Shown here: in pieces, positions 7,449 to 27,299 of the stretch
How positions within the stretch are numbered: the stretch's first letter is position 1
Layout of the letters: each line of letters opens with the position of its first letter
Assembly: GCA_023229135.1 (NCBI GenBank)
Contig: JALNZT010000006.1
Coordinates: forward strand, 1,996-65,995
From: Bacteroidales bacterium
GTDB taxonomy: Bacteria; Bacteroidota; Bacteroidia; Bacteroidales; F082
Reading direction: 5' to 3'
DNA: 64,000 nucleotides
The notes under the pieces: model-generated
The model's database searches: none
What the model saw: only the letters and a program-made list of their open reading frames with translations
What the model was told of the DNA's origin: nothing
Position numbers and translations under genes: made by a program

Positions 7449-7999
7449 CGAACTTATTCTTCCCCAGCCAAAAGATGTATTTAGTTGTGCAATATGGCAC
7501 AAATTGTCTATCAAATAAAAGTGTGTAGTAAAGCTCATGACAACAAGCTACATCAAAGGATACTAACCGGGCTAAACCACCATGCCTTGCTTTTGCGGGG
7601 GGGGGTAAAGCCATATTGTTCAGGATACCAGAGCGAACTTATCAGCTGCCTACGCTTTAAAGCACACAACTTAAAGATTGCGGTTAGAAAAGACCTAAAA
7701 AAACGGATAGTTTTCATAAGCTGGTTTTGAGGCTTCAAGTATAAGTACAATAAACATAAAGCACAACTTTTTTTTTGCGATTTTGCAATAAAAAAAACAA
7801 ATATTTTTTATGTTACTGAAATTCAATTGAATAAAACTGTTTTTTAAGCTTGATAAATTCTAAAAGGTGGCTGAGAGAGCTTATATTAACTAAATGCGCT
7901 GGAAAAAATGGGAGCAAAACTCAAGCTCTATAACTGATTATCAATGCCAATAGAGACGGATTTAGGGAGGCACGGATTGCAAATCCGCGCCAGCGGGTG
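7449..7999 (-). repeat. promoter/leader module copy A (heads cassette A)
   Basis: It aligns by eye along its whole length with 17736-18270, 24793-25358 and 26807-27299. It contains a G9 run at 7597-7605. Confidence 0.9.
7736..7766 (-). promoter_or_regulatory. Bacteroidota-type promoter in module A (TTG-20 nt-TATACTTG)
   Basis: The minus strand reads agTTGtgctttatgtttattgtactTATACTTGaagcc. This is one mismatch from the TAnnTTTG -7 consensus, and copies D and E match it perfectly. Confidence 0.45.
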
Positions 8000-8065
8000 A
8001 ATATTATGCGTGAGGTTGATCCGGCTAATGCTTCTAAGTATGAGAAGATTTTGGTGCCGAGGTAA
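8000..8065 (+). pseudogene. displaced 3'-end fragment of the DUF4835 gene
   Basis: aatattatgcgtgaggttgatccggctaatgcttctaagtatgagaagattttggtgccgaggtaa is colinear with 4557-4622. It encodes NIMREVDPANASKYEKILVPR* versus NIMREVDPSNASKYEKILAPN* in the gene. Confidence 0.85.
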
Positions 8066-8082
8066 TAGTTTTTTATTCAATC

Positions 8083-9381
8083 TCACGTTTTGTCGAAAAG
8101 AATATGCTTTAATGGTTGTAATACTCTATGAAACAGGCGAATATCGTTTGTGATTATCTCAGCAGTACCTTTCAGGCGTTGTTTGAAAACAAAGGTTTTA
8201 CCATAGCTGGTTTTTAAACCTGCCGGAAAATTTACTGTTGCATAGTAAACTCCCTCGTCAGGTATTTCAGAAATATGCGAGATTACGCCTTCGAGCATGC
8301 CATACTCCATATAAGGATAATTATCCAATCTGATATTTACTTTTTGACCCGGTTCAACTTTGCCGGCTCCTTCGGCTGGTAGCAGTAGCATTCCTTTTAG
8401 CGCTCCATGCGAATCGGGTAATATGGTAAAAACCGTTTCATTAGCATTCAGGTTCTGATTTTTTGCCCAATACTTAGTAAAAACACACTTGCCTGACTGA
8501 GGTGTTCTTAGCACATATTTTTGCTCCCAGATTTCCAATTGCGCCTTCAGATTATTTCCGGCTTCAACAAGTGCTGAATACAAACTTTCGTGTTGTTGTT
8601 TGTCCAGCATTTTAAACTCTGCAATAGTACTTTGCATTTGACTGATCTGTATTTGAATATTAGCCATGTTTGTTCTGATACTTTCAAAAGCCAGTTTTCT
8701 GTTAAGGTATTGGCTTTGGGCTTTTTCAAGTTCCTGCTCCGGAATTACCTGCTCATCAAATAGTTTTACATAGCGTTTATAGTCTTTTGAGGCTAATTCA
8801 AAATCACTTTTCAAGGTTTTAAACTGCTCATTAGTAAAGTCATATAATGTGCGGTAGTCAATTAATTGAAGCTGTGTTGTATTGATTTTGTTATTATAAT
8901 AGTCTATTTCCCTATAACTTTGATAGGCATGCTGTGCCGATGTAAATGCTGAATAATAAACCTGAAGCTCACCCAACTTACCTAAGCTAATAGGAATATC
9001 CCATTTATTCAAGCTATCATTTGCCTGCCATTGGCTACTTAGCGTGTTTAAATGTTTTTTAAGAACTACAATTTCTGAATAATCGGCAGGATTTTCCACC
9101 AGTCCAAGAACTTGATCTTCATGTACTTTCTGATTTTCTATAACAAAAAAAGTATCTATTTTACCACTTACCCTGGCCTTAATCTCAGTCGGTGGAAGGT
9201 TTCCGGTAATTTCAATACTTGCATGTACTACATCAGGATATTTAAAAAACCAACTCGCTGTTATAAATAGCGCAATAATGACAAAAAATACCGAGATGCC
9301 CCAGCTCACAAGACTTCCCGGGGTTTTTCCCAGTATTTCGTCAATTTCGCCTGTGCGTATGTCTGTCAGATTTGCTGGCAT
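8083..9381 (-). CDS. HlyD-family membrane fusion / secretion adaptor protein
   Basis: 432-aa ORF with one N-terminal TM segment (VSWGISVFFVIIALFITASWFF) and a long coiled-coil middle. It lies directly downstream of the C39 ABC exporter. Confidence 0.8.
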   Translation of the reverse strand: MPANLTDIRTGEIDEILGKTPGSLVSWGISVFFVIIALFITASWFFKYPDVVHASIEITGNLPPTEIKARVSGKIDTFFVIENQKVHEDQVLGLVENPADYSEIVVLKKHLNTLSSQWQANDSLNKWDIPISLGKLGELQVYYSAFTSAQHAYQSYREIDYYNNKINTTQLQLIDYRTLYDFTNEQFKTLKSDFELASKDYKRYVKLFDEQVIPEQELEKAQSQYLNRKLAFESIRTNMANIQIQISQMQSTIAEFKMLDKQQHESLYSALVEAGNNLKAQLEIWEQKYVLRTPQSGKCVFTKYWAKNQNLNANETVFTILPDSHGALKGMLLLPAEGAGKVEPGQKVNIRLDNYPYMEYGMLEGVISHISEIPDEGVYYATVNFPAGLKTSYGKTFVFKQRLKGTAEIITNDIRLFHRVLQPLKHILFDKT

Positions 9382-9456
9382 GGAATATACTATTTTTAAC
9401 TGTTTATTTACGCTTATGAATTTTCGTTCAGTTTTTTCAAATCTAATGTTTATTGT

Positions 9457-11664
9457 TTAGTTTCCAAGTTCTAGTTGATTTTTGACCAGTTTGTAATAGC
9501 TTCCCTTAAGTTTTGTCAATTCCTGGTGCGTGCCTTGTTCGATGATACTACCTTTTTCCAGCACTACAATCTGATCTGCATTTTTAACAGTGCTGAGCCT
9601 GTGGGCAACCACCACAACAGTTCGTCCTTTGAAAAATTCATTCAGGTTTTCCATGATCACTTTTTCGTTGTTGGCATCCAGCGCATTAGTCGCCTCATCA
9701 AAAAAAATAAATTGAGGGTCTTTATAGACTGCCCTGGCAATTAATATACGCTGTTTTTGTCCTTGACTAAGTCCAACTCCTTCCTGACCGATCATGGTAT
9801 TAAAGCCAAGTGGTAGTGTTTCGATATGTTCCAATATATTGGCAACCCGAGAAGCATGTAGTAGCTTACTGAAATCCAACTCGTCTTCGCTGATGCTGAT
9901 GTTGCCGGCAATGGTATCAGAAAAAATAAAGCCATCCTGCATTACAGCACCCACTTTGGAACGCCAGACACTGGCAGAAAGATTATCCACCCGAAATGGG
10001 CCTATACGTATTTCACCCGCCACAGGCTTGTAAAAGCCCAAAAGCAGTTTGAGCAAAGTGGTTTTTCCACTTCCCGATGTGCCTACAATTGCTGTTACTT
10101 TGTTTTGAGGGATTTTGAGGTCTAGCGCGTTAAGTACCAAAGGCGAACGAGGCCCGTCATACTGGTATGAAACGCCACTTAACAAGATGTCCTGTTCTGT
10201 GTCAAGTTCCCTTATTTTTACATTCATCTTATCGGCCGGTTCTTCATCTTCACGCAGGTGTATTTCACCCAATCTTTCAAGACTGATTTTGGCGTCTTGG
10301 GCAGCACGTACAAATCCTATCATTTGGTCAACCGGGGCATTCATCATACCAATGATGTACTGCACGGCCATCATCATACCGAGCGTCATCTCGCCTTTTA
10401 CAACCGCGTAAGCCGCCATAAAGGTGATGAGTATATTTTTTGACTGGTTAAAAAACGTTGCCCCGGCCTGTTGGTACTGGTTGAGTGCTAAGCCTTTTAT
10501 ATTTACGCGAAACAACCTGGCCTGTATTTTTTCCCACTCCCATCGTTTCTGTTTCTCGCAGTTGTTAAGTTTAATCTCCTGCATACCAGTAATCAATTGT
10601 ATCAGGTTACTTTGATTACCGGCCATTTGCGCGAAGCGTTTAAAATCCAATTCGCGGCGTTTTTTCATAAAGACCAGCACCCAAAGGGTATATAAAATGC
10701 TTCCGGCAAGGAAAACGAGTAAGATGCCCACATTATATACGCCAAGCACGATGGCAAATACAGCAAGGTTCACCACGGCAAACAAGATTTGCAAGGAAGA
10801 GGCTGTCAAAAAGCTTTCGATACGGCTATGATCACCAATGCGTTGCATCAGGTCGCCAATCATTTTGCTGTCAAAATAGCCCAGGGGCAGCTTCATCAGC
10901 TTGATCAGGAAATCGCTTATAAGCGAAATGTTGATGCGTGTGCTGATATGTAGCAATATCCAGCTACGAATAAACTCAACGGCTGTCTGGCCAAAAAATA
11001 AAACCAATTGCGCTATCAGCACTAAAGTGATAAAATTGAGATCACGTGTGTTGATACCCACATCTACTACTGCCTGGGTGAGGAATGGAAAGATAAGCTG
11101 TATGATACTGCCCAACAGCATGCCCAATATAAGCTGTACTAAAAGTTTGCGGTGCGGGCGCAAATAGGAGAACAAAAACCGGAAGTTTTTTTTGTTGACT
11201 ATTTCTTCTTCGTTGGTATAGAAATCCGGTGTGGGTTCCAGCAACAGACAAACGCCCATGTCCTCGTCTTCGTTTTTAGTGCTTACCCAGCCTTTTAGGA
11301 ATTCTTCCCTGCTATACGTAATAAGCCCGTGCGCAGGATCGGCTACTTTTACTTTGTCTTTTTTCTTCCCGCTAATCTCATATACCACCACAAAATGCTG
11401 CTGTTTCCAGTGGGCGATGCATGGTAGCGGGACTTCGTTAGCCAGCTTGTCGAAGGTGATTTTTACACCCATAGTTCTGAAACCGATTTTCTCGGCTGCA
11501 TCGCTGATGCCGAGCAAGGAAACCCCTTCACGGTTAATATGACAATACTCCCTTAGCACGGGCAAACTGTGTCGCTTGCCGTAGTGTCTGCTAATCGCAT
11601 CCAGGCAGGCCGGGCCACAGTCGCGGGCGTCGAGTTGGGGGGTGAAATTATATCTCACTTTCAA
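9457..11664 (-). CDS. peptidase C39 domain-containing ABC transporter (double-glycine leader cleavage/export)
   Basis: 735-aa ORF. It has the N-terminal C39 Cys motif PQLDARDCGPACL, six-TM region, Walker A GTSGSGKTTL, ABC signature LSQGQKQRI and Walker B IFFDEATNALD. Confidence 0.93.
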   Translation of the reverse strand: MKVRYNFTPQLDARDCGPACLDAISRHYGKRHSLPVLREYCHINREGVSLLGISDAAEKIGFRTMGVKITFDKLANEVPLPCIAHWKQQHFVVVYEISGKKKDKVKVADPAHGLITYSREEFLKGWVSTKNEDEDMGVCLLLEPTPDFYTNEEEIVNKKNFRFLFSYLRPHRKLLVQLILGMLLGSIIQLIFPFLTQAVVDVGINTRDLNFITLVLIAQLVLFFGQTAVEFIRSWILLHISTRINISLISDFLIKLMKLPLGYFDSKMIGDLMQRIGDHSRIESFLTASSLQILFAVVNLAVFAIVLGVYNVGILLVFLAGSILYTLWVLVFMKKRRELDFKRFAQMAGNQSNLIQLITGMQEIKLNNCEKQKRWEWEKIQARLFRVNIKGLALNQYQQAGATFFNQSKNILITFMAAYAVVKGEMTLGMMMAVQYIIGMMNAPVDQMIGFVRAAQDAKISLERLGEIHLREDEEPADKMNVKIRELDTEQDILLSGVSYQYDGPRSPLVLNALDLKIPQNKVTAIVGTSGSGKTTLLKLLLGFYKPVAGEIRIGPFRVDNLSASVWRSKVGAVMQDGFIFSDTIAGNISISEDELDFSKLLHASRVANILEHIETLPLGFNTMIGQEGVGLSQGQKQRILIARAVYKDPQFIFFDEATNALDANNEKVIMENLNEFFKGRTVVVVAHRLSTVKNADQIVVLEKGSIIEQGTHQELTKLKGSYYKLVKNQLELGN

Positions 11665-11715: not shown

Positions 11716-12996
11716 TTATTCAGTCTTATCATTATCTTGCCATGTTTTTTTAACAGGATCGTAATTACAAAGATTCATAATACCAAAGTAAAGCTCATAA
11801 CTAGATATTGGCTGACATAAATATCGGTATACACAATTTTTACAGGGTTCAACTTTTGCCCTTGTTAAATACCAGGAGCTATCTTCTATCGTATGAGCGT
11901 TGCGCAATATTTCAATCAGTTTGTTGCTTTTTATATTGCCAATATGAGGCATGTTCAAATTAGCATGAACATCACCATTGGGAAGAATAAATAACTTCCC
12001 AAAGCTTAAATGGTTTATAAACAATCTGGAGGCAATTTCACGATGAGTTAATGACTGATTCTCAACATCTGCCTTGTTACTTTTTATCACTTCAAATAAA
12101 GCATTTGACGTTGAGTTATCTATGAATGGGATCAATTCATAGGTAATGCCTTGTGTAATAAAAATTTGCTCCAAGTCTGAAATATCATTCACATCACGAA
12201 TAATTATCTTAAAAACTATTCTTGAGATGGAATCCTCATTCATCGAGAAAAAGTCAAATAATAACTTACGTTCGGTTTTGAAATCGACCCATAAAATAAA
12301 TTTTAAGTTCTCTGTATAAGTAAGTGTTTTATTATCTAATAATTCTATTACAGCGTCAGAGATATAAGCATTATAATGAACAAAACAATCCTTAAAAAAA
12401 TCGCACGTATCCTTTATTTTCTTTAGTGAAATCTCATTTCCATACAATTGAACTTTTCTAAGGCCCGGAAAAGCTTCACCCCTAAAAAAACGTAAAACCA
12501 AGTTACTACTTTCATACTGAGCCTCATTTAGGTTTATGATTGGAGCATTGATTTGTTTACTACCCGACGTATTAAATGCTGAATCAGTAATGTTTGTTGA
12601 GGAATCTCCGTAATATATAAACACCTCTTTTAGTGAATATCGGAGGTTCAAAGTTTGCCATGTTTTATCATTATTTATGTTATTAACATCGAAGTTCAGT
12701 TTTGGCGCAAAAGGCAGGATTAAAGGACGATAATGACTTTCAATTAAATCCCCGTGAAAATAATCTCTGCATAAAACTATGAATGCTGTGATTTCATCGT
12801 CAATCAACTCATTTTCATCCAAAAGGGTAATTCTATTAACATCATCTTTGAGTAATCTCGAAATGAATTCAACCCCTTTTATTCCTTTAAATAGAAAGGT
12901 AGAAGTTATACTATTAATCGTATTATGTAGCAAAATTTGATTATCAATGAGATCTGAATGAACATAAGGTTCAAGATAAAAAAAGGAATTAAGCAT
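11716..12996 (-). CDS. pseudo-rSAM protein (SPASM-like Cys cluster, no CxxxCxxC), partner of the radical SAM maturase
   Basis: The track ORF extends to 13086. ATG 12996 (MLNSFFYLEPYV) overlaps the rSAM stop as ATGCTTAA. The C-terminus has CKNCVYRYLC..C, and there is no radical-SAM Cys triad. This matches my memory of the GG-Bacteroidales pseudo-rSAM family. Confidence 0.7.
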   Translation of the reverse strand: MLNSFFYLEPYVHSDLIDNQILLHNTINSITSTFLFKGIKGVEFISRLLKDDVNRITLLDENELIDDEITAFIVLCRDYFHGDLIESHYRPLILPFAPKLNFDVNNINNDKTWQTLNLRYSLKEVFIYYGDSSTNITDSAFNTSGSKQINAPIINLNEAQYESSNLVLRFFRGEAFPGLRKVQLYGNEISLKKIKDTCDFFKDCFVHYNAYISDAVIELLDNKTLTYTENLKFILWVDFKTERKLLFDFFSMNEDSISRIVFKIIIRDVNDISDLEQIFITQGITYELIPFIDNSTSNALFEVIKSNKADVENQSLTHREIASRLFINHLSFGKLFILPNGDVHANLNMPHIGNIKSNKLIEILRNAHTIEDSSWYLTRAKVEPCKNCVYRYLCQPISSYELYFGIMNLCNYDPVKKTWQDNDKTE

Positions 12997-14476
12997 AGCG
13001 CGTTTTTCTCCATATTTCTGAGTAAACATCAGTAAATGCCTCAAAGAATGAGTAGTAATCCCTAAGAAGATCAATGTGATCTTCATTTTTTAGATGGGAA
13101 CATTTTACTGTTTTATCTTCCTTTATTATATTTAGAAACAAACATTCTTTGCATAGGTTGACTCGATAACAGTTATTGCATTTCCCTTTTAATTTTTCAA
13201 AGTGATTATTATACATCATAACAATCTTTTCATAATCTAAAAATACTTTTCCATTTTGAACATTACCTAATGAATACTCATGCGCAATGGCTTCGCAGGG
13301 CAGTATTTTTCCCTTTGCTGTGACAAACATTCTTTTGCTAAACGGATTGCAGGTGCCAGTAGGAAGAAAATTGCCCTTAGTATTGTAATTAAATAAGTCA
13401 TCAATTGTAGAAAAATGGTTATTCGTATAGTTTCTAAGAAACATGTTATAGCTCAAAGATTCACCTGAGGAAAGAAAACACTTTTTATGCTCTGATTTAT
13501 TAAGATCGTAATTATGACCATCGTAATTGAATTTTTTTCCAACTAATAGCGGATTTACCTCGGTGCCGGCAATTGATTTTTTGAATTCTCTCCAAATAAA
13601 TTCCTGAATAGAAATGAAATCATTTCTGTCGTGTAGTACCGCATTAAAAAGTACATTTTGTTCAAAAAATGAAGGGTAGTTCCTCTTAACCAAGTGGATG
13701 TTCTTGAATACAACCTTAAATGATTCTTTGTTATTAGGAAAAAGTCTGTAGCTATTCGCAAATGAGTCTCCGTCAAGACTAATAGTAAGCGCAAAGTTGT
13801 TTTTTGCAATGAATTCAATGTGTTGGTTTAACAAAACACCATTAGTTGTCATGTTAAACCTAAAGTTGAGGGGAGTGTTTTTGCTCAATTCTTCAATATA
13901 GGAAACTAATTCCTCAATGAAAGGAAAGTTCAATAACGGTTCGCCACCAAAAAATCCGATGAATATTTCTTTTTCAAGATTACTGTTAACTTTACTAAGC
14001 CACTTTGGTATTAAGTATTCTATTACTGCTTTAGCATTAGCAATACTTAAATCAAGATTATTCCGTGAATCATGAGTGTGATAATTATCTCCATAAAAGC
14101 AGTACTTACACTGGAGATTGCATCTTTCAGTAATTTCAAACACTAGAGCGCGTAAGTTTGATAACTCATAGTTAATATCGGAAGGCTTTAGTCGCCCTCC
14201 AATAATTTGTTCGTTGCTAATAGTATTAAAAAATCCGTTTTCTTTTAGGAACTCAAACTTACGTTTATAGTATATATCTGCTTTCTCCTTTGTCTTAAAA
14301 AGTAAGCTATCAGATTCGTCTTGATTTTCCTCAGTAATGGACCTATTGTTTGTTGCGTTGAAATCTTTTAGTTTTATATACCTAACTACCATTGGATTCA
14401 TATAAATAATATGCTTCTTATAAAAGCTAAATAAGTATTGATTATGTTTGGTAGTGAATAAATTAAAATCAGGCAT
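12989..14476 (-). CDS. radical SAM/SPASM domain peptide maturase
   Basis: 495-aa ORF with the radical SAM triad ITERCNLQCKYCFYG. SPASM motifs are GTCNPFSKRMFVTAKGKILPCEA and CNNCYRVNLCKEC. Confidence 0.9.
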   Translation of the reverse strand: MPDFNLFTTKHNQYLFSFYKKHIIYMNPMVVRYIKLKDFNATNNRSITEENQDESDSLLFKTKEKADIYYKRKFEFLKENGFFNTISNEQIIGGRLKPSDINYELSNLRALVFEITERCNLQCKYCFYGDNYHTHDSRNNLDLSIANAKAVIEYLIPKWLSKVNSNLEKEIFIGFFGGEPLLNFPFIEELVSYIEELSKNTPLNFRFNMTTNGVLLNQHIEFIAKNNFALTISLDGDSFANSYRLFPNNKESFKVVFKNIHLVKRNYPSFFEQNVLFNAVLHDRNDFISIQEFIWREFKKSIAGTEVNPLLVGKKFNYDGHNYDLNKSEHKKCFLSSGESLSYNMFLRNYTNNHFSTIDDLFNYNTKGNFLPTGTCNPFSKRMFVTAKGKILPCEAIAHEYSLGNVQNGKVFLDYEKIVMMYNNHFEKLKGKCNNCYRVNLCKECLFLNIIKEDKTVKCSHLKNEDHIDLLRDYYSFFEAFTDVYSEIWRKTRYA

Positions 14477-14492
14477 AAATTATCTATTATCG

Positions 14493-15752
14493 TTAATAAT
14501 GATTGTTAATAAACTCCCTAATGTAATCATTTAAATCTGATCGTTTTATCTTTAATACTTCCTCGATACAGTTGTAGAAATCTTCTTCATTGTCAGCTTC
14601 ACACAGATAAAGTTCTTTTACTTTTTCGTAGCCGCCCTGGCGGTATGCAATGTCAACAATTGCTGCATGAATGGTGTAAATAAAAGGCGTTTGCATTTCA
14701 TCATCTTTGTAATGCTTTAAACTTTCAATGTATTTACCATCCAAAGGATAGCCAAACGTTAAATAGCCATCATCATTATAATAATAGCAAACAAGACTCC
14801 CGGAAAGATCAATCCAGGGGTTGGTATTTAGATAATGTTTGAGTCTGTAAATATGGAATAGGTAGTTTTTTGTTAATACCCCACCAAAGTAGGTAGCGAT
14901 CCCTTCCTCAAAATAAGTGGTTTTTTCTTTTTGGAAAAAGTTAAGTAACAGATGTATTATTTCATGAAGGTCATCTTCACCAGTTCCACCAGCTATAATA
15001 ATATTATTAGCTGATAGTGCCATAGCTTCTCTATTACTCAATCCGGAAATAAAATCTGTATCATAGTGTTGCACACCAAACAATATTGCAGCATCAGTTA
15101 GATTATCAGCTAAAACGTATGTAATCGAATCATTGAATTCAATTCCGAATCCATCTTTGAAAGTTTGTATTTTGGATTGCATAGCGATAGCCTTTTCAGT
15201 ATTAAACACATAGTCGCGATCATAATAGAATCTGATTAAACCAATTCTTTTTGTTTCTAACATATTCTTATGATGTGAGAAAGCATTGGTAAGCTTAAAC
15301 TCTCCATTGGCTTGTTTTTTTATTGGGACAGTGATCATGTATGAAGGGATTCGCTTCCACATTTCTTCAGGATAGGCCAAAAACATGGCTCTTAACTCAA
15401 ACAAACTTTCCTCCCGTTTGATAATGCCCAATAAATATTCCTTTTCCATTGGGTAAAAAACGTTTCCACTAGCCCTTTTAAAAGAATAAAATAAATCCGG
15501 GAATTTGTATTGATCAATTTCGTTTTGATCCCAATATTTATGTAATTCCTCAGGAAACTCGTTTAATATGTAGCTTTTTTTTGCACTGTGATAATTAAGC
15601 TCGTCAAGGTAGCTTTCCCATAAATCATAAATTTCTGTAAATCCGGTGAATGTTGTGTCAACGAATGGACTAATTATTGTTTCCGGTCGTGTTTGTGTTT
15701 GGCTGCTAAGAGAAATCAATAAACCGACAAATAGTAAGAATATTCTTTTCAT
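14493..15752 (-). CDS. secreted HExxH (gluzincin-like) putative zinc metallopeptidase, paralogue 1
   Basis: 419-aa ORF with a signal-like N-terminus MKRIFLLFVGLLISLSSQ and the motif LHEIIHLLL...YFEEGIATYFGG (HExxH plus a downstream Glu). Confidence 0.6.
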   Translation of the reverse strand: MKRIFLLFVGLLISLSSQTQTRPETIISPFVDTTFTGFTEIYDLWESYLDELNYHSAKKSYILNEFPEELHKYWDQNEIDQYKFPDLFYSFKRASGNVFYPMEKEYLLGIIKREESLFELRAMFLAYPEEMWKRIPSYMITVPIKKQANGEFKLTNAFSHHKNMLETKRIGLIRFYYDRDYVFNTEKAIAMQSKIQTFKDGFGIEFNDSITYVLADNLTDAAILFGVQHYDTDFISGLSNREAMALSANNIIIAGGTGEDDLHEIIHLLLNFFQKEKTTYFEEGIATYFGGVLTKNYLFHIYRLKHYLNTNPWIDLSGSLVCYYYNDDGYLTFGYPLDGKYIESLKHYKDDEMQTPFIYTIHAAIVDIAYRQGGYEKVKELYLCEADNEEDFYNCIEEVLKIKRSDLNDYIREFINNHY

Positions 15753-17451: not shown

Positions 17452-17649
17452 TTAATACGCAAAATTATTCCTAGAGCCAGTTATTCCTGCACTTTGCCGG
17501 TTTGAATATGTTTGCTGATATGTAGTGTCGCCAGAACCACAATCACAACTGCAACTGCAAACTGGTGTCGAACCTCCACCTCCCTGTTCTCCACCTTTAA
17601 TATGACCTAATGAATTTTGGGTCATTTTGATTAATTTTAGATTTTTCAT
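17452..17649 (-). CDS. RiPP precursor peptide with a double-glycine leader and CxCxCxC core
   Basis: MKNLKLIKMTQNSLGHIKGG | EQGGGGSTPVCSCSCDCGSGDTTYQQTYSNRQSAGITGSRNNFAY. Confidence 0.85.
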   Translation of the reverse strand: MKNLKLIKMTQNSLGHIKGGEQGGGGSTPVCSCSCDCGSGDTTYQQTYSNRQSAGITGSRNNFAY

Positions 17650-17735
17650 ACTTTGAATTGTTAGACTGTAAATAATTGTGAGTAGTTAAAAGTGAATTGT
17701 GAAGCCGTCCTTAAAAGAAAGACGGCACAATTCAA

Positions 17736-18841: not shown

Positions 18842-20318
18842 AACGTGTTTTTCTCCAAATTTCTGAATACAATTCTGGCAAAGCCTCAAAAAAAGAATAA
18901 TAGTCGTTTAAAAGTCCCTTGTGACTTTCGTTATTAAGGAAAGAACATTTCAATGATTGCTCATCATTTAGCATGTTTAGAAACAAACATTCTTTACATA
19001 AATTGACTCGATAACAACTATTACATCTACCTTTCAGTTTCTCAAAATAGCCATTGTACATTTTGACTATCACTTTTGGTTCCAAATTTACAGTTCCACC
19101 TTGAACGTTTCCAAGGGCATATTGATGAGAAATAGCTTCGCATGGAAGTATTTTGCCTTTTGCTGTTACAAACATTCTTTTGCTAAAAGGGTTGCATGTT
19201 CCGGTTGGAAGGGAGTTCGAAATGGCATTGAAATTATACAAATCGTCTATCGCTGCAAAATGATTATTTGAATAGTTACGCAAAAACATATTATAGCTTA
19301 ATGACTCGCCCGAAGACAGAAAACATCTTTTGTGCCCAGATTTCCTAAAATCATAACTATGTCCATCATAATTGAAATTGTTTCCTGTCAACAAAGGGTT
19401 AACTTCAGATCCTTGAATAGATTTGTTAAACTCTCTCCATGCAAATTGCTGTGTTGATATATAATCATTCCTATCATGCAGAACTGCATTAAATAGCACA
19501 TTACGTTCAAAATAATCAGGATGCTTTTCCTTTACCAAACGTAAGTTCTTAAAAACTATGTCAAAAGATTCTTTTCCATTCGGAAAAAGCCTGTAACTAT
19601 TTGCAAAAGCCTCACCATCCAGGCTAATAGTGAGAGCGAAGTTGTTGTTTGAAATGAAATCGATGTATTTGTTTAGCAAAACACCGTTTGTTGTCATATT
19701 AAATCTAAACGTTAAACCGGTATTTTTGCTTACTTGGTTAATATACAAAACAAACGCTTCAATAAAACTAAAGTTCAACAAAGGCTCACCGCCAAAAAAA
19801 CCTATAAAAATTTCCTTTTCAGGATTTTTATTTAACTTACTAAGCCATTTTGGAATAAGATAATCAACTATCGCTCTGGCATCTAAAATATTCAAATCAA
19901 GATTCATCCGCGAATCATGTGTGTTATAACTATCTCCATAGAAACAATATTTACATTGTAGATTACATCTTTCTGTGATTTCAAATACAATTGCCCGTAG
20001 GTTTGACAGTTCGTACTCAATATCAGATTCTTTCAGGCGACCACCAATTATTTGTTCATTATCAATGTTTTCAAAAAATCCGTGTTCCCGAAGAAATTCG
20101 TATTTCTTTTTGTAATATACCAACTTATCATTTTTGTTTTGATTTACTAAGTTGGCTGTTTCTTTTTTATCTACCAATTGATTTTCATTGTTTTGCATTT
20201 TGAGTTTTTGATCGTGTGTCAAACTACTCATTAAGGGATGAAAATTAATCGAATACTTTTTATTAAAGCTAAATAGATAGTTATTGTATTTAGTTGAAAA
20301 GGTAGTGTAATCAGGCAT
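18834..20318 (-). CDS. radical SAM/SPASM domain peptide maturase (second copy)
   Basis: 494-aa ORF with ITERCNLQCKYCFYG, GTCNPFSKRMFVTAKGKILPCEA and CNSCYRVNLCKEC. It is colinear with 12989-14476. Confidence 0.9.
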   Translation of the reverse strand: MPDYTTFSTKYNNYLFSFNKKYSINFHPLMSSLTHDQKLKMQNNENQLVDKKETANLVNQNKNDKLVYYKKKYEFLREHGFFENIDNEQIIGGRLKESDIEYELSNLRAIVFEITERCNLQCKYCFYGDSYNTHDSRMNLDLNILDARAIVDYLIPKWLSKLNKNPEKEIFIGFFGGEPLLNFSFIEAFVLYINQVSKNTGLTFRFNMTTNGVLLNKYIDFISNNNFALTISLDGEAFANSYRLFPNGKESFDIVFKNLRLVKEKHPDYFERNVLFNAVLHDRNDYISTQQFAWREFNKSIQGSEVNPLLTGNNFNYDGHSYDFRKSGHKRCFLSSGESLSYNMFLRNYSNNHFAAIDDLYNFNAISNSLPTGTCNPFSKRMFVTAKGKILPCEAISHQYALGNVQGGTVNLEPKVIVKMYNGYFEKLKGRCNSCYRVNLCKECLFLNMLNDEQSLKCSFLNNESHKGLLNDYYSFFEALPELYSEIWRKTRYA

Positions 20319-20332
20319 CCTATAGCTGGTGT

Positions 20333-21583
20333 TTAGTAATTCGTATTTATAAAATTTCTCAAATATGTATTCATATCAGCTCGCTTTATCTTCAATACTT
20401 CTTCAATACAGTTGTAGAATTGATCCTCGTTATCAGCTTTGCAGAGAAATAGTTCTTTTACTTTTTCGTACCCACCATCTTTAAATGCAATTTCGCATAA
20501 AACAGCATGGATCATATACTGGAAATTATAGCTTGACTCTAAATCCCTAAACTGTAAAATTTCTTCATTCTCTTTCTTTAGCATCTCATCTTCAAGATTA
20601 TTAATACTTACCTTTGAATGACCAAAAAAGCTCTGAGACAAATCAATCCATACATTTTGGTCTAAGAATGTTTTAAAACGTGGCATATGCTCTTTATATG
20701 TATAACCAACATGCTCACCAAAATATGTAGCAACACCTTCCTCGAATAAAGCATATTTCCCTCTTTCATAGTTGCTTAATAAAATATGAATTATCTCGTG
20801 AAAGTAGTTCTCTCCACCGCCTCCAATGTAAACCATGTTATTTAAAACCGTGTAACCTCCTTGAATGGTGTTTGAAACACTACCATAGTCGAAATAATTG
20901 TAATCAACACCAAACAATTGTGAAATATCGGTCGTCCTATGTGATAAAACATAGTTGATAGGTTTTGAGCATTGGAGGTTAAAACCCTTTTTAAACTGCT
21001 CAATTTTCAAGCCTAATAAAGCTGTAAGACTATCATTCAATATATATTCCATTGGATAATAATATTTTATGCTATTAGGTAATTCTGTTTTTACAATACT
21101 AGAATGATGATTGAAGGCATTTTCAAGTTGGAGTCCATTCTCTGTCTTTCTAACATATATGGTTAAAAATGCCGAGGGGAACCCTCTAAATGGGGATTCC
21201 TCTGATGTTTTGAACATCGTTTTAATTTGGTACAGGTCATCTCTCCGATTGGTTATGCCTAGAAAATATTCAGTATCGTTTGTATACCATACATTTCCTT
21301 TAGACCGAAAATACGCATAGTACAGATCGGGGAAGTCAAACATAGAATTATCTTTTTCAGACCAATAGACTTTTAATTGCTCTGGCATATCATCTAGGAG
21401 GGCACCATTTTTAAGGTTTACAACATTTAATTCATCCATATAACTTTTCCAAAACTTAAAAACCTCCTTAAATTGTGGAGGTATCGTATCAGCAAAAGGA
21501 TAGATTTCAATATTTCTTTGTATTTGACCAAAAGAGATATGAAATGAATAGAAAAGGAATAGAAATAGAAGTGTTTTTTTCAT
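20333..21583 (-). CDS. secreted HExxH (gluzincin-like) putative zinc metallopeptidase, paralogue 3 (more divergent)
   Basis: 416-aa ORF with signal-like MKKTLLFLFLFYSFHISFG, the motif FHEIIHILL...LFEEGVATYFGE and a conserved C-terminal block GGYEKVKELFLCKADNEDQFYNCIEEVLKIKRAD. Confidence 0.6.
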   Translation of the reverse strand: MKKTLLFLFLFYSFHISFGQIQRNIEIYPFADTIPPQFKEVFKFWKSYMDELNVVNLKNGALLDDMPEQLKVYWSEKDNSMFDFPDLYYAYFRSKGNVWYTNDTEYFLGITNRRDDLYQIKTMFKTSEESPFRGFPSAFLTIYVRKTENGLQLENAFNHHSSIVKTELPNSIKYYYPMEYILNDSLTALLGLKIEQFKKGFNLQCSKPINYVLSHRTTDISQLFGVDYNYFDYGSVSNTIQGGYTVLNNMVYIGGGGENYFHEIIHILLSNYERGKYALFEEGVATYFGEHVGYTYKEHMPRFKTFLDQNVWIDLSQSFFGHSKVSINNLEDEMLKKENEEILQFRDLESSYNFQYMIHAVLCEIAFKDGGYEKVKELFLCKADNEDQFYNCIEEVLKIKRADMNTYLRNFINTNY

Positions 21584-21643
21584 TTTTGAATTACCCTTAA
21601 TACCTTTATTAATAAATAATTAAGAAATGTTAAAACTAAAAGA

Positions 21644-21712
21644 TTAAGGCTGTATATTATAATTCAAATTCATACTGTTGATGAAAATAGTGAGCATAAG
21701 ATACAGCCTTAA
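21644..21712 (-). terminator. 12-bp stem hairpin (large loop) after the third precursor gene
   Basis: ttaaggctgtat (21644-21655) pairs with atacagccttaa (21701-21712). Confidence 0.35.
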
Positions 21713-21722
21713 ACTAAGTCAA

Positions 21723-21926
21723 TTATGTTGGATTAGCTATTGACTTCATTGTTGAGTGATTAGTTGCACTTGTGGTTGTTGACCTATTCATATTATATGT
21801 TGTATCTTCACCACTACAACTACATGTACAGCTACAAGCTGGGGTTGTACCACCTCCGCCTTCTTCACCACCTTTGATTTGACTTAATGCATTCTGAGAC
21901 AAATTGATTAATTTTAAGTTTTTCAT
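21723..21926 (-). CDS. RiPP precursor peptide with a double-glycine leader and CxCxCxC core (divergent tail)
   Basis: MKNLKLINLSQNALSQIKGG | EEGGGGTTPACSCTCSCSGEDTTYNMNRSTTTSATNHSTMKSIANPT. Confidence 0.8.
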   Translation of the reverse strand: MKNLKLINLSQNALSQIKGGEEGGGGTTPACSCTCSCSGEDTTYNMNRSTTTSATNHSTMKSIANPT

Positions 21927-22007
21927 CGTTTGAAAAGTTTAATTGGAAATAATAATAACTAGAAAATGAGGGTACGCCGTCAATTAATTAATGACGGCAA
22001 TCATCGA

Positions 22008-22090
22008 TCGAACTTATTCTTCCCCAGCCAAAAGATATATTTTGTTGTGCAACACCGCACAAACTGTTTGCGAAATAAAAGGGTGTGAGC
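22008..22090 (-). repeat. partial promoter/leader module copy C (only the precursor-proximal ~80 nt conserved)
   Basis: tcgaacttattcttccccagccaaaagatatattttgttgtgcaaca..aaataaaag matches the low-coordinate end of copies A, B, D and E. The sequence from 22090 to about 22345 is unique and contains a G6 run at 22159-22164. Confidence 0.75.
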
Positions 22091-22440
22091 CTGATCGTGC
22101 ATGCAAGCAACAAGCTGCCGGATGATGCCTGTAAGACTCTTCCACTCGGTATTTATTAGGGGGGTTAATGGCTTGTATATCATAATTATATAAAGATTTG
22201 GTCATACAAACAACCAAGCATGCAAACAATTTGTTTGGGGCAGATAAACTTGGTGGGTAGGTGCTGGCTGATCTCATGGCTTTGTTTTCGGCTTTAAAAC
22301 TAAAAACAACATTTTTAGAAAGCAAATATTTTTTTGCATGATGTTTCTTTTCTTAATGGAGCAAATTTCTTAATCCGGCTGTTTATAGGGCATTGCAATG
22401 CTATTTAAAATGGATATAAATTGAGAAGTAATGTTTTCAG

Positions 22441-22681
22441 CCATACAGGGCAGCGGCACTTCGTTAGCCAGCTTGTCGAAGGTGATTTTTACACCCATAG
22501 TTCTGAAACCGATTTTCTCGGCTGCATCGCTGATGCCGAGCAAGGAAACCCCTTCACGGTTGATATGACAATAATCCCTTAGCTTGGGCAGGCTGTGTTG
22601 CTTGCCATGATGCCTGGCAATCGCATGCAGGCAGGCAGGGCCACAGTCGCGGGCGTCGAGTTGGGGGGTGAAGGGGAACAT
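22441..22681 (-). pseudogene. 5' fragment of a C39-peptidase ABC transporter gene (~80 codons)
   Basis: MFPFTPQLDARDCGPACLHAIARHHGK..KITFDKLANEVPLPC matches the N-terminus of 9457-11664. The DNA is near-identical by eye to 11425-11664, and the similarity stops abruptly near 22441. Confidence 0.85.
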
Positions 22682-24471: not shown

Positions 24472-24473
24472 TT

Positions 24474-24683
24474 TTAGTTTGCATTGATTTTAATTACTAT
24501 GCCTAAAATTTTACGATCGGTACGTTGAATATTGTTATGCATATAGTATGTTTTCTTCCCAAAGATACCATCAACTTGTATATCCTCGTCTGTCTCAATA
24601 TAATCTGTAATTATATCGCTTTCAGAAGTGCCTCCAATAACATTATCCATATCTGTTTTGTCAATGAAAATTACTTTTTTCAT
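24474..24683 (-). CDS. candidate RiPP precursor with a GG leader and Thr/Ser/Asp/Glu/Lys-rich core
   Basis: MKKVIFIDKTDMDNVIGG | TSESDIITDYIETDEDIQVDGIFGKKTYYMHNNIQRTDRKILGIVIKINAN. It is the first gene after leader module D and lies two genes upstream of the ATP-grasp enzyme. Confidence 0.6.
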   Translation of the reverse strand: MKKVIFIDKTDMDNVIGGTSESDIITDYIETDEDIQVDGIFGKKTYYMHNNIQRTDRKILGIVIKINAN

Positions 24684-24792
24684 AAAATAATATATTAATT
24701 TAGTTGATTAAAACCTAAAATTCTCCAACGGTATAAATCTATCCGTGAATAAAGCCGTCCATCCAATGGTTTTGGTAGACGGCCCACCTCGG

Positions 24793-25358
24793 TCGAACTT
24801 ATTCTTCCCCAACCAATCCCGAAAGCTTTCGGGAATATTTCGTCGTGCAATAAGGCACAAATTGTCTATCAAATAAAAGTATGTAGTAAAGCTCATGACA
24901 ACAAGCTCCATTAAAGGCGGCTAACCGGGCTAAACCACCATAGTCTTGCTTTTGCGGGGGGGGGGGTAAAGCCATGTTGTTCATGATAACACAACAAGCT
25001 TATCAAACGTGTACACTTTATAGTACACAACTTAAAGATTGCGGTTAGAAAAGACCTAAAAAAACGGATAGTTTTCATAAGCTGGTTTTGAGGCTTCAAA
25101 TATAAGTACAATAAACATAAAGCGCAACTTTTTTTTACGATTTTGCAATAAAAAAACAAATATTTTTTATATTACTGAAAATCAACTGAATAAAACTGTT
25201 TTTTAAGCTTGATAAATTGCCAAATGCGGCTGAGAGAGCTTAGATTAACTAAATATGCTGGAAAAAATGGGAGCAAAACTTATGCTTTACAACTGATTAT
25301 CAATGGCAAAAGAGAAGGATTTAGGGGGGCACGGATTGCAAATCCGCGCCAGCGGGTG
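24793..25358 (-). repeat. promoter/leader module copy D (heads the ATP-grasp cassette)
   Basis: It aligns with copies A, B and E and has a G11 run at 24956-24966. It carries an extra small hairpin insertion cccgaaagctttcggg at 24818-24833. Confidence 0.9.
25097..25127 (-). promoter_or_regulatory. Bacteroidota-type promoter in module D (TTG-20 nt-TATATTTG, perfect TAnnTTTG)
   Basis: The minus strand reads gTTGcgctttatgtttattgtactTATATTTGaagcc. Confidence 0.5.
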
Positions 25359-25516: not shown

Positions 25517-25517
25517 T

Positions 25518-25829
25518 TTATTTTTTTGAAATAGTTATAATTTTTATTTGGCTGAATTTGTTATCTTGCCAATTACAAGTCCATTTAGCATCTAATAATT
25601 CATATTCAACATTTACAATTAAACCATCTACTGAAAATTCAGATTCTAATTCAATAGGTTTATACATAGTATCTTTTATCAATAAAAAGTATCCGCACCC
25701 ATCCATTGCAGGATTTCCCTCGAATAATATCGTGGCCTTATCCTTTAATGTTGTGATGTTATTTTTATCGCAACTACTTAGTAGTAATAGGGTTATTAAA
25801 AAAAAACATGTTAACTTTATATACTTCAT
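25518..25829 (-). CDS. small lipoprotein, unknown function
   Basis: 103-aa ORF with the lipobox LLLLSSCDKNN. Confidence 0.65.
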   Translation of the reverse strand: MKYIKLTCFFLITLLLLSSCDKNNITTLKDKATILFEGNPAMDGCGYFLLIKDTMYKPIELESEFSVDGLIVNVEYELLDAKWTCNWQDNKFSQIKIITISKK

Positions 25830-25970: not shown

Positions 25971-26381
25971 TCATTTTTCTTCGATTTTAGTTAAAATTAA
26001 ACGATTATAAGTATAATCAGCGGGTGCAAATGTTTTTTGACAAGTTTCCGTAACATATCCGGAAAATTTCACTTGTATAATTTCTCCTGATACTAATTTT
26101 GATTTTAGTGTATCAGACAAAAAATCTTCATTACATAATATATAGGCATGTACACAATTAATACAATTAGGCACTGTATAACCAAACCAAAATTTATTGT
26201 TATAGAAATCGTCCAAGCTATCCAATTGTATTTTATAACTCAAACTTCCATATAGTGGTTCAGCATCAGGAATTGTATATTGTATTATGCCATTGCAACC
26301 GCATTCATCTTTTTTATTTGTTTCTTTTTTGCAAGCAACAAATAACGTAAATAGTGTAATTAATAATAATAGTTTTTTCAT
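25971..26381 (-). CDS. small Cys-rich lipoprotein, unknown function
   Basis: 136-aa ORF with the lipobox LFTLFVACKKE and several Cys pairs (ECGCNG, PNCINCV). Confidence 0.65.
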   Translation of the reverse strand: MKKLLLLITLFTLFVACKKETNKKDECGCNGIIQYTIPDAEPLYGSLSYKIQLDSLDDFYNNKFWFGYTVPNCINCVHAYILCNEDFLSDTLKSKLVSGEIIQVKFSGYVTETCQKTFAPADYTYNRLILTKIEEK

Positions 26382-26441
26382 TTTTAAATTAATTTTAAGT
26401 GCTTAAATGTTATCACTTATGGAAAAAGCACATTCATAATG

Positions 26442-26655
26442 TCAAGAATATCCCAGAACGTCTTCATCTGTATTATAGCCACAACCATCTGATAAACAGC
26501 CGTCATCAATTAGATTAGCTGTGATAGTTTTTCTATTATTTTTGTAAATACCCAGCCTGAAATCATAGTCTAAGTATATCCCTCATTCTCAGTATTTAAT
26601 TCTGAATGGTTTAAATTGTCTATTTTTACTTTCTTAATATCTAATTTTTTTTCAT
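26442..26655 (-). pseudogene. possible decayed leader-peptide gene interrupted at an A8 tract
   Basis: ATG + A8 + TTAG gives MKKN*. With one extra A it would read MKKKLDIKKVKIDNLNHSELNTENEGYT. A third frame continues as GIYLDYDFRLGIYKNNRKTITANLIDDGCLSDGCGYNTDEDVLGYS*. It occupies the position of the first small ORF after leader module E. Confidence 0.3.
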
Positions 26656-26806
26656 GCTATTTATTGTTAAATTATTAAATTCTATAACGGGTTCATTATG
26701 ACTGATTTATGCGTAAAAAACGATTTTGACAATGAGAACCCAAAACCTTATAATATAAAAACATGTTTCGCCGCTACTTTATTCTATATAGTTGCGGCTA
26801 ACTCGA

Positions 26807-27299
26807 TCGAACTTATTCTTCCCCAACCAGAAAATATATTTTGTCGTGCAATAGGACACAAATTGTCTATTGTATAAAAGTGTACAGTAAAGCTCATGAC
26901 AACAATCAGCATTAAAGGCCGCTAAGTGGGCTAAACCACCACACCTTACTTTTTCGGGGGGGGGGGGTAGGATAGCAGAGCGAGCTAATCAGCTGCGTAT
27001 GCTTTAAAGCGCACAGCTTGAAGATTGCGGTTAGAAAAGACCTAAAAAAACGGATGGTTTTCATAAGTTGGTTTTGAGGCTTCAAATATAAGTACAATAA
27101 ACATAAAGCGCAACATTTTTTTTTACGATTTTGCAATAAAAAACAAATATTTTTTATGTTACTGAAAATCAACTGAATAAAACTGTTGTTTAAGCTTGAT
27201 AAATTCTAAAAGGTGGCTGAGAGAGCTTAGATTAACTAAATATGCTGGAAAAAATGGGAGCAAAACTCCAGGTTTACAACTAATTCTCTATTTCAAAAA
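26807..27299 (-). repeat. promoter/leader module copy E (heads the lipoprotein cassette)
   Basis: It aligns with copies A, B and D and has a G11 run at 26956-26966. Its upstream end joins a DUF4835-gene fragment at 27300 instead of the hairpin end of the other copies. Confidence 0.9.
27083..27113 (-). promoter_or_regulatory. Bacteroidota-type promoter in module E (TTG-20 nt-TATATTTG)
   Basis: Same context as module D. Confidence 0.5.

Follow-up and report, generated by a model that had tools for sequence, protein, structure and literature searches.

A conserved small open reading frame joined by a poly-C tract and followed by an RNA hairpin: a candidate translated leader of exported-product cassettes in Bacteroidales

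The stretch of DNA considered here, hereafter the window, comprises 64 kb of the genome of a Bacteroidales bacterium (GCA_023229135.1, contig JALNZT010000006.1), and its region 7449-27299 contains a repeated module placed ahead of unrelated operons for exported products. With high confidence, the module can be described as a translated conserved small open reading frame (ORF) with a poly-C joint and an RNA hairpin at its 3′ end. The copies were sought by a direct-repeat search of the window and by multiple alignment of the minus strand. The direct-repeat search gave four full copies on the minus strand (7432-7997, 17720-18270, 24790-25356, and 26791-~27300) and a fifth, more diverged family member near 21990-22330. 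Across blocks of 170-230 nt the full copies are 74-96% identical in the alignment, in agreement with the four near-identical copies claimed in an earlier reading of this DNA, made without database searches (the sequence-only reading). That reading considered the fifth copy a remnant of ~80 nt; it is instead a full diverged paralogue, at ~21962-22325, with a promoter-like element, an N-terminal ORF, and a poly-C tract. The 18-mer TGGGGAAGAATAAGTTCG, part of the most conserved stretch, occurs in the window exactly five times, always on the minus strand, versus 0.02 occurrences expected by chance. The five copies, named A to E, and the genes behind them (their cargo) are listed below.

7396-7997, minus strand: module copy A (type 1), complete, running from a putative upstream insulating hairpin through the promoter-like element and the split leader ORF to the 3′ RNA hairpin
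7970-7990, minus strand: copy A, 5′-edge hairpin GCGCGGATT-TGC-AATCCGTGC, read from the sequence
7775-7840, minus strand: copy A, region upstream of the promoter-like element, with ACAGT/CAGT direct repeats (10-11 nt phase) and a TTGC-N6-GCAA dyad
7736-7766, minus strand: copy A, promoter-like element of Bacteroidetes type, TTG-N20-TATACTTG
7553-7717, minus strand: copy A, N-terminal leader ORF (MKTIRFFRSFLTAIFKLCALKRRQ...TPP), which reads into the poly-C tract
7597-7605, minus strand: copy A, poly-C tract C9, read Pro-Pro-Pro
7426-7614, minus strand: copy A, conserved-frame ORF of 62 aa, MALPPPAKARHGGLARLVSFDVACCHELYYTLLFDRQFVPYCTTKYIFWLGKNKFGRGGPSQ
7447-7491, minus strand: copy A, conserved motif CTTKYIFWLGKNKF(G/D)
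7396-7446, minus strand: copy A, 3′ RNA hairpin (core stem 7404-7438, -26.8 kcal/mol, 4 G-U pairs)
7025-7429 and 6648-7028: copy A, cargo genes for Cys-rich secreted proteins, with a 598-aa protein at 4765-6561
17693-18270, minus strand: module copy B (type 1)
18010-18040, minus strand: copy B, promoter-like element
17875-17991, minus strand: copy B, N-terminal ORF
17885-17894, minus strand: copy B, poly-C tract C10
17732-17911, minus strand: copy B, conserved frame, open and without an ATG, GTG, or TTG start
17735-17737, minus strand: copy B, last motif residue (Asp), followed by TGA
17693-17734, minus strand: copy B, hairpin
17452-17649: copy B, cargo gene for a precursor with a double-glycine (GG) leader, with a radical S-adenosylmethionine (rSAM) cluster
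21962-22325, minus strand: module copy C (type 2), the diverged full-length paralogue
22295-22325, minus strand: copy C, promoter-like element
22275-22277, minus strand: copy C, ATG of the N-terminal ORF, which is out of frame and ends at a TAA within the motif (22014-22016)
22159-22164, minus strand: copy C, poly-C tract C6
22001-22183, minus strand: copy C, conserved-frame ORF
21962-22009, minus strand: copy C, stretch containing the hairpin
21723-21926: copy C, cargo gene for a GG-leader precursor
24747-25356, minus strand: module copy D (type 1)
25097-25127, minus strand: copy D, promoter-like element
24911-25078, minus strand: copy D, N-terminal ORF
24956-24966, minus strand: copy D, poly-C tract C11
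24799-24984, minus strand: copy D, ORF of the conserved part, shifted in frame by a 13-nt hairpin-forming insertion within 24817-24834 and ending ...CTTKYSRKLSGLVGEE
24747-24790, minus strand: copy D, hairpin
24474-24683: copy D, cargo gene for a GG-leader precursor, with an ATP-grasp cluster
26765-27300, minus strand: module copy E (type 1), with a diverged promoter-distal end
27083-27113, minus strand: copy E, promoter-like element
26912-27064, minus strand: copy E, N-terminal ORF
26956-26967, minus strand: copy E, poly-C tract C12
26779-26988, minus strand: copy E, conserved frame, open and without an ATG, GTG, or TTG start
26765-26802, minus strand: copy E, hairpin
25971-26381 and 25518-25829: copy E, cargo lipoprotein genes, preceded by a degraded small ORF

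The modules lie in a ~25-kb island flanked by housekeeping genes, namely, bamD-rpoZ-coaBC-DUF4835 on one side and recN-fabI on the other. The genes behind them are unrelated, as first noticed: copy A precedes secreted Cys-containing proteins, copies B and C precede GG-leader precursors with rSAM/SPASM enzymes and a C39-ABC exporter, copy D precedes a GG-leader precursor with an ATP-grasp enzyme, and copy E precedes lipoproteins. The rSAM and ATP-grasp cassettes are of the type of ribosomally synthesized and post-translationally modified peptides (RiPPs).

The module is not confined to this genome. The exact 18-mer was found in 42 stretches of the species-representative genome collection; ~30 of these have extensive similarity in the flanks and come nearly all from metagenome-assembled genomes (MAGs) of Bacteroidales/Lentimicrobiaceae, and the remaining ones, without flanking similarity, are chance matches in a number close to the ~17 estimated beforehand. 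A protein-level scan of metagenome contigs yielded 54 further loci, several of them from the same contigs, and one 124-kb contig carries at least 5 copies within 33 kb. In total, 73 distinct copies were collected in ~85 loci from Lentimicrobiaceae/Bacteroidales MAGs and metagenomes. The picture of a shared module with its own promoter, in sense orientation and ahead of unrelated secreted-product operons, is thus borne out, and the module recurs in many genomes. The copies fall into subfamilies (types 1, 2, 3, and others) that have the 3′ ~110 nt in common, whereas their promoter regions and 5′ halves diverge strongly. Copy C is a full member of type 2, a type which occurs in many other genomes. 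A subset of copies has no poly-C tract (L008, L018, L033, L037, and L038), and type 3 has only a short N-terminal part.

The common 3′ part is a coding frame. When the frames are numbered relative to the 18-mer, no stop interrupts frame 2 between about -135 and a point beyond +20 in 33 of 34 loci, while the other frames contain on average 1.1-1.5 stops. The synonymous share of codon differences is 0.27 in the conserved frame versus 0.07-0.08 in the others, and the ratio of nonsynonymous to synonymous differences (pN/pS) is 0.54 versus 0.94-0.99, for loci ascertained at the peptide level, independently of the nucleotide sequence. All substitutions within the 18-mer are synonymous (GGG/GGT/GGA, AAG/AAA, TTC/TTT, and CTG/TTG). 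Because of the open frame, the synonymous excess, and the low pN/pS, the core is regarded as protein-coding and not as structured RNA. This revises the view of the leader as ~350-420 nt of untranslated sequence, since a conserved ORF lies inside it.

The sequence-only reading took the module, with its untranslated leader, for a shared cis-regulatory RNA or regulon signal. On this view the leader would be a structured RNA, riboswitch-like or bound by a protein or a small RNA. Such a reading would account for the very high nucleotide conservation of the ~110-nt core and for the real RNA hairpin downstream of it; the minor-codon bias of the motif (described below) also hints at a constraint at the RNA level, and copy D and L025 carry inserted hairpins of different sequence at one and the same site. 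However, RNAalifold on 33 segments from the poly-C tract to the hairpin yields for the core no structure common to the sequences (-0.19 kcal/mol, 6 pairs, and no compensatory changes), and the folding of the whole leader compared with shuffles reaches only z = -2.0, against -1.4 for the opposite strand. The helix GTGTGC/GCGTAC, for which a compensatory pair was claimed, falls within the N-terminal ORF, and about half of the type-1 relatives do not preserve its pairing. The absence of a match to a known riboswitch or leader was confirmed: Rfam 15 gives no window match at the gathering threshold, and at E<=10 copy D has only chance-level matches. The substitutions follow a protein-coding frame, so coding explains the conservation, and the untranslated-RNA reading is essentially excluded, largely by this coding signature. 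The sole robust RNA element is the 3′ hairpin, which the earlier description did not include.

The insertions mentioned above deserve a separate description. Those of copy D (24817-24834) and L025 (~360-385) are in unrelated copies and fall at the same motif codon, after ...TTKY; the stems of the hairpins that they form differ (CCCGAAAGCTTTCGGG and CCCGAGATATTAGGG). The insertion of L025 is 12 nt long and in frame, whereas that of copy D, with 13 nt, shifts the frame. The frameshifted peptide of copy D was also encountered in another dataset (P0004).

The encoded peptide has the form ...C-C-H-E-x5-T-L-L-F-x-x-Q-F-V-P-(Y/C)-C-T-T-K-Y-I-F-W-L-G-K-N-K-F-D. Its near-invariant end, ...(Y/F)VP(Y/C)CTTKYIFWLGKNKFD, is found in the 73 copies and in 61 protein clusters with unrelated N-termini; only the last ~20 residues are fixed across the whole family, the N-terminus and the middle vary, and some ORFs of the family have only 28-39 aa. 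No match was obtained in Pfam, NCBIfam, PHROG, PADLOC, or the PDB sequences. Of the 5.8 billion clusters that the protein database has at 90% identity, only 11 contain the peptide, and an exhaustive profile search gave 61 clusters at 50% identity; all but one of these have 38-133 aa with the motif at the C-terminus, the exception being a 286-aa repeat protein which is probably a false match. The family is an undescribed family of small ORFs that gene callers have missed. At the end of the motif the codons are CTG-GGG-AAG-AAT-AAG-TTC-GAT-CGA (e.g., 7444-7467), which are nearly exclusively minor codons. Indeed, GGG is used in 69 of 73 copies, the two AAG codons in 68 and 67, TTC in 65, and AAT in all 73; in the genome, GGG makes up 9% of Gly codons, AAG 25% of Lys codons, and TTC 26% of Phe codons. 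The bias concerns the purine-rich codons of the motif; its remaining synonymous sites vary freely, and AAT-AAG also makes a TAA that closes one of the alternative frames.

In every copy a hairpin follows directly after the motif. Its sequence varies by locus, and its structure and position are kept although the sequences differ. In 35 of 38 loci the fold is more stable on the sense strand (Wilcoxon p=1e-6), and the hairpins contain 99 G-U pairs on the sense strand versus 29 on the antisense strand; it follows that the hairpin is an RNA feature transcribed toward the cargo. The median stem has 12 bp, and most ORFs end ahead of the 5′ arm of the hairpin or within it. Sequence conservation ends at the Asp residue, and the next codon is CGA in 48 and a stop in 15 of 73 copies (together 63/73). 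CGA accounts for 9% of Arg codons in the genome, and the only other Arg codon seen after Asp is CGG, once. Counted from the first base of the Asp codon, the distance to the 5′ base of the hairpin is 10-11 nt in 36 of 73 copies, with a median of 11 and an interquartile range of 10-12. In the ribosome, the mRNA entrance with its helicase site is located ~11 nt downstream of the first P-site nucleotide. With this spacing, therefore, when Asp occupies the P site the helix would stand at the ribosome entrance during a slow event in the A site, either the decoding of CGA or termination.

Two other identities for this 3′ part were tried and rejected. A second promoter, possibly of the extracytoplasmic function type, does not fit, as its -10-like part falls in the variable hairpin. 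A double-glycine precursor (...KFDRGG plus a variable core) does not fit either, given that 15-20 of 73 copies stop directly after Asp and that the tail follows the hairpin sequence.

Upstream of the conserved part, the module contains a second, variable ORF. Its start is MKTIRFF... in type 1 and MKTASTYPLS... in type 2, and in both types it runs into the poly-C tract. It is open in all 15 type-1 and type-2 sequences, in which the other frames have 1-5 stops, and the distance from ATG to tract is fixed at 112 nt, the sole indel being an in-frame one of 15 nt. The tract ranges from C5 to C19 with a mode at C10, and it is read Thr-Pro-Pro-Pro with CCC codons only, whereas CCC represents 15-20% of the Pro codons of the genome; the tract is thus selected as a homopolymer. 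The end of the tract and the motif are ~116 nt apart, and the conserved frame can be followed from the tract on (PPPAKARRGGLARL...).

The frame relation of the two parts is that expected at random. The N-terminal ORF and the conserved part share one frame in 13 of 38 copies, which is the one-third random expectation; among the copies out of frame, 18 have one extra base and 7 have two, and the conserved part is intact in all. In copy A as assembled, the N-terminal ORF leaves the tract one base off the conserved frame and stops at 7553. In copies B and E the conserved frame is intact and has no possible start codon of its own. Furthermore, across 260 flanking nt the length of the tract is the sole difference between L015 (C10, out of frame) and L058 (C9, in frame). 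In three further pairs of near-identical loci the tracts are of one length. Since only 13 of 38 copies are in frame, both halves are intact, and L015 and L058 differ, the tract is interpreted as a frame-scrambling joint. The commonest out-of-frame class (18/25) is the one that a +1 shift would correct, the excess of 18 over 7 being weak (p~0.04). CCC-C is prone to +1 frameshifting by tRNA-Pro (PMC7577736, PMC4519876, PMC8324841). No stimulatory element was identified adjoining the tract. Pairing of the poly-C tract with GGGG or GGTGGG as an anti-hairpin was also considered and rejected, as there is no covariation in copies without GGTGGG (copy B) or without poly-C.

The promoter-like element has the consensus TTG-N19-20-TAnnTTT[G/A] and lies ~25-30 nt upstream of the ATG; it is perfect in 8 of 54 copies versus 1.8% of shuffles, and 38 further copies have one mismatch. 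In the window, the TTG-N20-TATA[C/T]TTG element noticed earlier is indeed present in copies A, B, D, and E at the positions listed. At the 5′ edge of type-1 copies A, B, and D (approximately 7970-7990, 18243-18263, and 25329-25349) there is the hairpin GCGCGGATT-TGC-AATCCGTGC, with one sense-strand G-U pair, followed by CCCCCTAAATCC; it may serve as a terminator or insulator against read-through from the upstream cassette.

Between this hairpin and the promoter-like element lies a region of repeats and dyads. The phased CAGT repeats of the sequence-only reading are real, with ACTG on the plus strand at 7815 and 7836, as is the TTGC-N6-GCAA dyad at 7775-7788, but neither is general: the ACAGT repeats are kept in the four window copies and, among their closest relatives, in L044, and the dyad region partly also in L048, while other subtypes have different repeats or dyads upstream of the promoter. 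The region is a candidate operator. It could even be argued that this operator is the main content of the module, the ACAGT repeats being bound by a LytTR regulator (36655-37416) within a quorum-type bacteriocin regulon and the small ORF being incidental. A hybrid sensor kinase (Reg_prop/Y_Y_Y/LytS-type His_kinase) and a LytTR response regulator are in fact encoded at 33527-37416, ~6 kb from the island, and the four window copies and L044 do keep the repeats. ACAGT(T) repeats with spacings of 10-11 and 21 nt resemble the direct repeats of LytTR type, such as AgrA/ComE-type sites. Nevertheless, the other subtypes do not keep the repeats, the regulator and kinase are missing from all of the 86 further loci (430 kb), the distance of ~45 nt from the repeats down to the -33 element exceeds the one usual for LytTR sites, and the universal ORF-hairpin unit would be left without explanation. 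As an account of the whole module the operator reading is quite improbable; LytTR control could be an added lineage-specific layer.

Downstream of the hairpin, the cargo is mostly exported. Among 68 assessable copies, 23 stand before small GG-leader peptides, 11 before small Cys-rich peptides with a signal peptide, and 25 before larger proteins whose N-terminus carries a hydrophobic signal, in many cases with a lipobox-like Cys. Of the 9 copies left over, 6 precede small ORFs of other kinds and 3 precede larger proteins in which no signal is obvious; several of these 9 cargo genes look like mis-started members of the first three classes. The cargo genes are all on the same strand as the leader. 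Hairpin and cargo ATG are separated by a spacer of 50 nt (median) with 78% A+T, in which the promoter consensus occurs in 0 of 68 copies; on account of this short and promoter-free spacer, the cargo is most probably co-transcribed with the leader ORF.

A recurrent cargo family was observed ~90 nt after the motif in L009, L011, L018, L022, L053, L076, L079, L081, and L089. It consists of ~60-aa peptides with a signal peptide and the Cys pattern ...AAE.PC....CDNYVVICD.YD...WDEIYC..., each followed by a ~280-aa protein, and it looks like an undescribed secreted Cys-rich peptide system.

Each island carries several copies with different cargo, and a trans-acting product would be redundant; hence a role in cis is favoured, and a cis-acting leader function is considered more likely than not. 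The main rival sees in the conserved ORF the first gene of the cassette, the product being a small protein that acts in trans (for example, a regulator, a helper in export or maturation, or an immunity factor) and is phase-variable by means of the poly-C tract, and it takes the hairpin for a 3′ stabiliser of the mRNA, a partial terminator, or a processing site. Purifying selection acts in close relatives on ~40 residues, including Cys and His (CCHE...CC) which could bind a metal; gene callers have predicted a protein in 61 clusters; and coding poly-G/C tracts are the classic design of contingency genes. Against this stand the family-wide restriction of conservation to the last ~20 residues, with some ORFs of 28-39 aa, the near-identical copies per island, whose products acting in trans would cancel independent switching, the end of conservation exactly at the CGA or stop at a fixed spacing to the hairpin, and the lack of a confident fold or of any family or structure match in the searches made. 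The trans-acting protein is on balance judged unlikely.

A further alternative is that the module is an entity of the DNA level, a mobile promoter cassette or recombination anchor which swaps cargo and is conserved by gene conversion. The homology between close relatives does break at the module 3′ end, at the conserved motif and hairpin, with other cargo beyond it: L044 and L048 have the leader and upstream genes in common with window 7449-9782 and differ in cargo, and L014 has copy C's cargo in common with window 18273-22087 behind a leader of type 3. The island is moreover rich in segmental duplications and in truncated gene fragments adjoining modules. Two such fragments, 18194-18889 and 22370-22681, lie directly upstream of modules B and C, which are therefore placed at junctions of segmental duplications. 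On the other side, an insertion sequence or miniature inverted-repeat element, which the sequence-only reading had named as the finding that would speak against it, was looked for: copies A, B, and D have no consistent terminal inverted repeats, the copies have no target duplication and their flanks differ in the alignment, there is no transposase or recombinase among the annotated window genes, and no module match was found in the viral contigs or plasmids searched. Gene conversion does not explain a codon-aware conservation across species in which changes are synonymous only, nor hairpins which differ in sequence while keeping structure and position. This alternative is very improbable as the primary explanation. 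As a by-product, and in view of the breakpoints at the module 3′ end, the conserved ORF probably doubles as a recombination anchor for cassette exchange. Ends of the integron attC or IS200/IS605 kind were also considered and rejected, there being no integrase or transposase and the hairpins not being common to the copies.

As to the fragments themselves, one is a 5′-truncated paralogue of the 456-aa SPASM gene at 11716-13086, and the other is a 103-aa N-terminal piece of a C39 peptidase, the DNA of which is 91% identical to 11414-11646.

The explanation considered best, and held to be slightly on the favourable side of even, is that the module acts in cis as a translated leader, with the frame set by the poly-C tract and the cargo gated by a ribosomal pause. 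The unit would read, in order, promoter, ATG of the variable N-terminal ORF, poly-C tract, ~40 codons, CGA or stop, hairpin, spacer, and cargo. The tract would set the share of ribosomes (or of cells) entering the conserved frame, either by heritable length change through slipped-strand events or by slippage of RNA polymerase or of tRNA-Pro on CCC-C. The conserved nascent peptide would be made in one frame only. In concert with a CGA or stop codon that is slow in the A site and with the helix at the entrance, it could pause or arrest the ribosome at the hairpin foot. Where this ribosome stands would then set cargo expression, and it may prevent or permit processing, or termination that depends on both the hairpin and a factor. 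Ribosomes in the other two frames would stop early and leave the RNA naked, in which case poly-C would be an ideal loading site for Rho; this step is proposed by analogy with tnaC, speFL, and cruR, in which stalling on an upstream ORF masks Rho sites (PMC12360218). The outcome would be an independent gate for each cassette, stochastic or condition-dependent, in which a pause could mean either ON or OFF. Within this scheme, a genuine nascent-peptide arrest is a tentative proposal that falls short of even. The stronger formulation, a new class of switch with a two-part leader ORF, a hypermutable or slippery poly-C tract, and an arrest peptide, by which each RiPP, bacteriocin, or lipoprotein operon would be phase-variable or responsive to EF-P or tRNA-Pro, is somewhat unlikely as a whole.

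Several points weigh against the paused-leader explanation. Transcription start, translation, pausing, and the effect on cargo are all inferred from sequence. Neither the tract nor a long N-terminal ORF is obligatory, because some copies have no tract and the N-terminal part of type 3 is short. The random frame relations could in part reflect errors of homopolymer assembly or consensus calls from heterogeneous MAGs, and a tract-length difference is documented by the single near-identical pair L015/L058. The hairpin does not overlap the cargo start codon, and a U-rich tail follows it in 25% of cases versus 24% of control windows, with none called by a terminator scan. The minor codons GGG, AAG, and TTC suggest an additional constraint at the nucleotide level which lies outside the model. 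Finally, AlphaFold gives no confident fold (pLDDT, the predicted local distance difference test score, of 56 with a 12-sequence alignment), and the conservation among close relatives extends over ~38 residues (CCHE...), which is longer than most arrest motifs and is also compatible with a small functional protein.

The ingredients of the module have precedents in leader and arrest peptides, in homopolymer contingency tracts, and in slippage on CCC-C; the combination is without a precedent that could be found. The known arrest and leader peptides (SecM-secA, MifM-yidC2, VemP-secDF2, ErmCL/ErmBL, TnaC, SpeFL, and CruR) are, like the module, encoded by a small 5′ ORF co-transcribed with the regulated genes, which for the module is inferred. 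They also have ~15-20 conserved C-terminal residues with a free N-terminus, and a fixed short distance from the conserved end to an RNA structure. TnaC and SpeFL stall at termination, which may be compared with the stop or slow codon that comes next in the module, and in tnaC, speFL, and cruR an uncovered C-rich RNA could load Rho (PMC12360218), as it could in the module. The differences are also clear: there is no sequence similarity, ribosome arrest in the module is putative, the hairpin neither sequesters the cargo start nor resembles an intrinsic terminator, the cargo consists of secreted products and not of machinery or a resistance gene, and the ORF is split by a homopolymer tract.

The contingency loci with poly-G/C tracts in Neisseria, Haemophilus, and Campylobacter and with homopolymeric tracts in Bordetella (PMC1891110) have in common with the module a long G/C homopolymer against codon preference and roughly random ON/OFF frames; a difference in tract length between otherwise identical alleles, as in such loci, is seen in the module in the one pair L015/L058. 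In these loci the tract lies in a structural gene or promoter spacer and gates an effector; in the module, in contrast, it lies in a leader ORF and would gate a conserved C-terminal peptide and a hairpin. With recoding on slippery runs, by tRNA-Pro +1 shifts on CCC-C or by transcriptional slippage, the module shares the CCC run, the best-known +1-prone sequence (PMC7577736, PMC4519876, PMC8324841).

Leaders of proline-rich type and leaders acted on by NusG paralogues are also relevant. In the Salmonella mgtA and mgtCBR leaders, the ORFs mgtL and mgtP contain consecutive Pro codons, and the speed of translation selects the RNA conformation or the access of Rho (see also PMC12360218). The module likewise has a short leader ORF with consecutive Pro codons, but it differs in its long homopolymer, its second conserved peptide part, and its one fixed hairpin, and no alternative pairing was found. 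The leaders of NusG paralogues (RfaH ops/JUMPStart, Bacteroides UpxY, and LoaP) resemble the module as long conserved 5′ leaders common to several long operons for secreted, surface, or secondary-metabolite products; the conserved part of the module is, in contrast, codon-constrained, and no NusG-like gene was seen among the annotated window genes, the scan covering a part of the ORFs. In the literature searched, no description was found of the peptide family, of the combination, or of an arrest-type leader in Bacteroidota, and the literature on Lentimicrobium bacteriocins and on homopolymer switches in leader ORFs does not describe the module.

If the paused-leader explanation is true, one portable device would let uncultured Bacteroidales control many different surface proteins and secreted weapons stochastically or according to the state of translation. 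The module would also provide a new arrest or leader peptide in Bacteroidota, and the first arrest-peptide system described there. Initiation in this phylum is not based on Shine-Dalgarno sequences, and its translational control is poorly understood. The homopolymer would be wired in a new manner, gating a regulatory nascent peptide rather than an effector gene, and if both arrest and frame gating were confirmed, the system would come close to a new class of switch. Even with another mechanism, the conserved small ORF family is undescribed. In the loci examined the motif marks the start of an exported-product cassette, and CTTKYIFWLGKNKFD with the hairpin constitutes a sequence handle for new RiPP/bacteriocin clusters and precursors in metagenomes.

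Some features of the island stand apart from the module. The segment 14493-17730 is a tandem duplication with a period of 1619 nt, each unit of which encodes a GG-leader precursor together with a protein of 419 aa. Neither Pfam nor NCBIfam gave a match for these proteins of 419 aa (14493-15752 and 16112-17371; a paralogue is at 20333-21583); they are always found behind precursors of the type ...IKGGEEGGGGTTPACSCTCSCSG, and for this reason they may represent an unknown maturase. Lastly, the degraded small ORF after module E (26560-26700, minus strand) begins with ATG and A8 and runs into a stop, while with A9 the product would be MKKKLDIKKVKIDNLNHSELNTENEGYT; it represents either the remains of a precursor or a second homopolymer prone to slippage, and it leaves a gap of 427 nt ahead of the lipoprotein gene.

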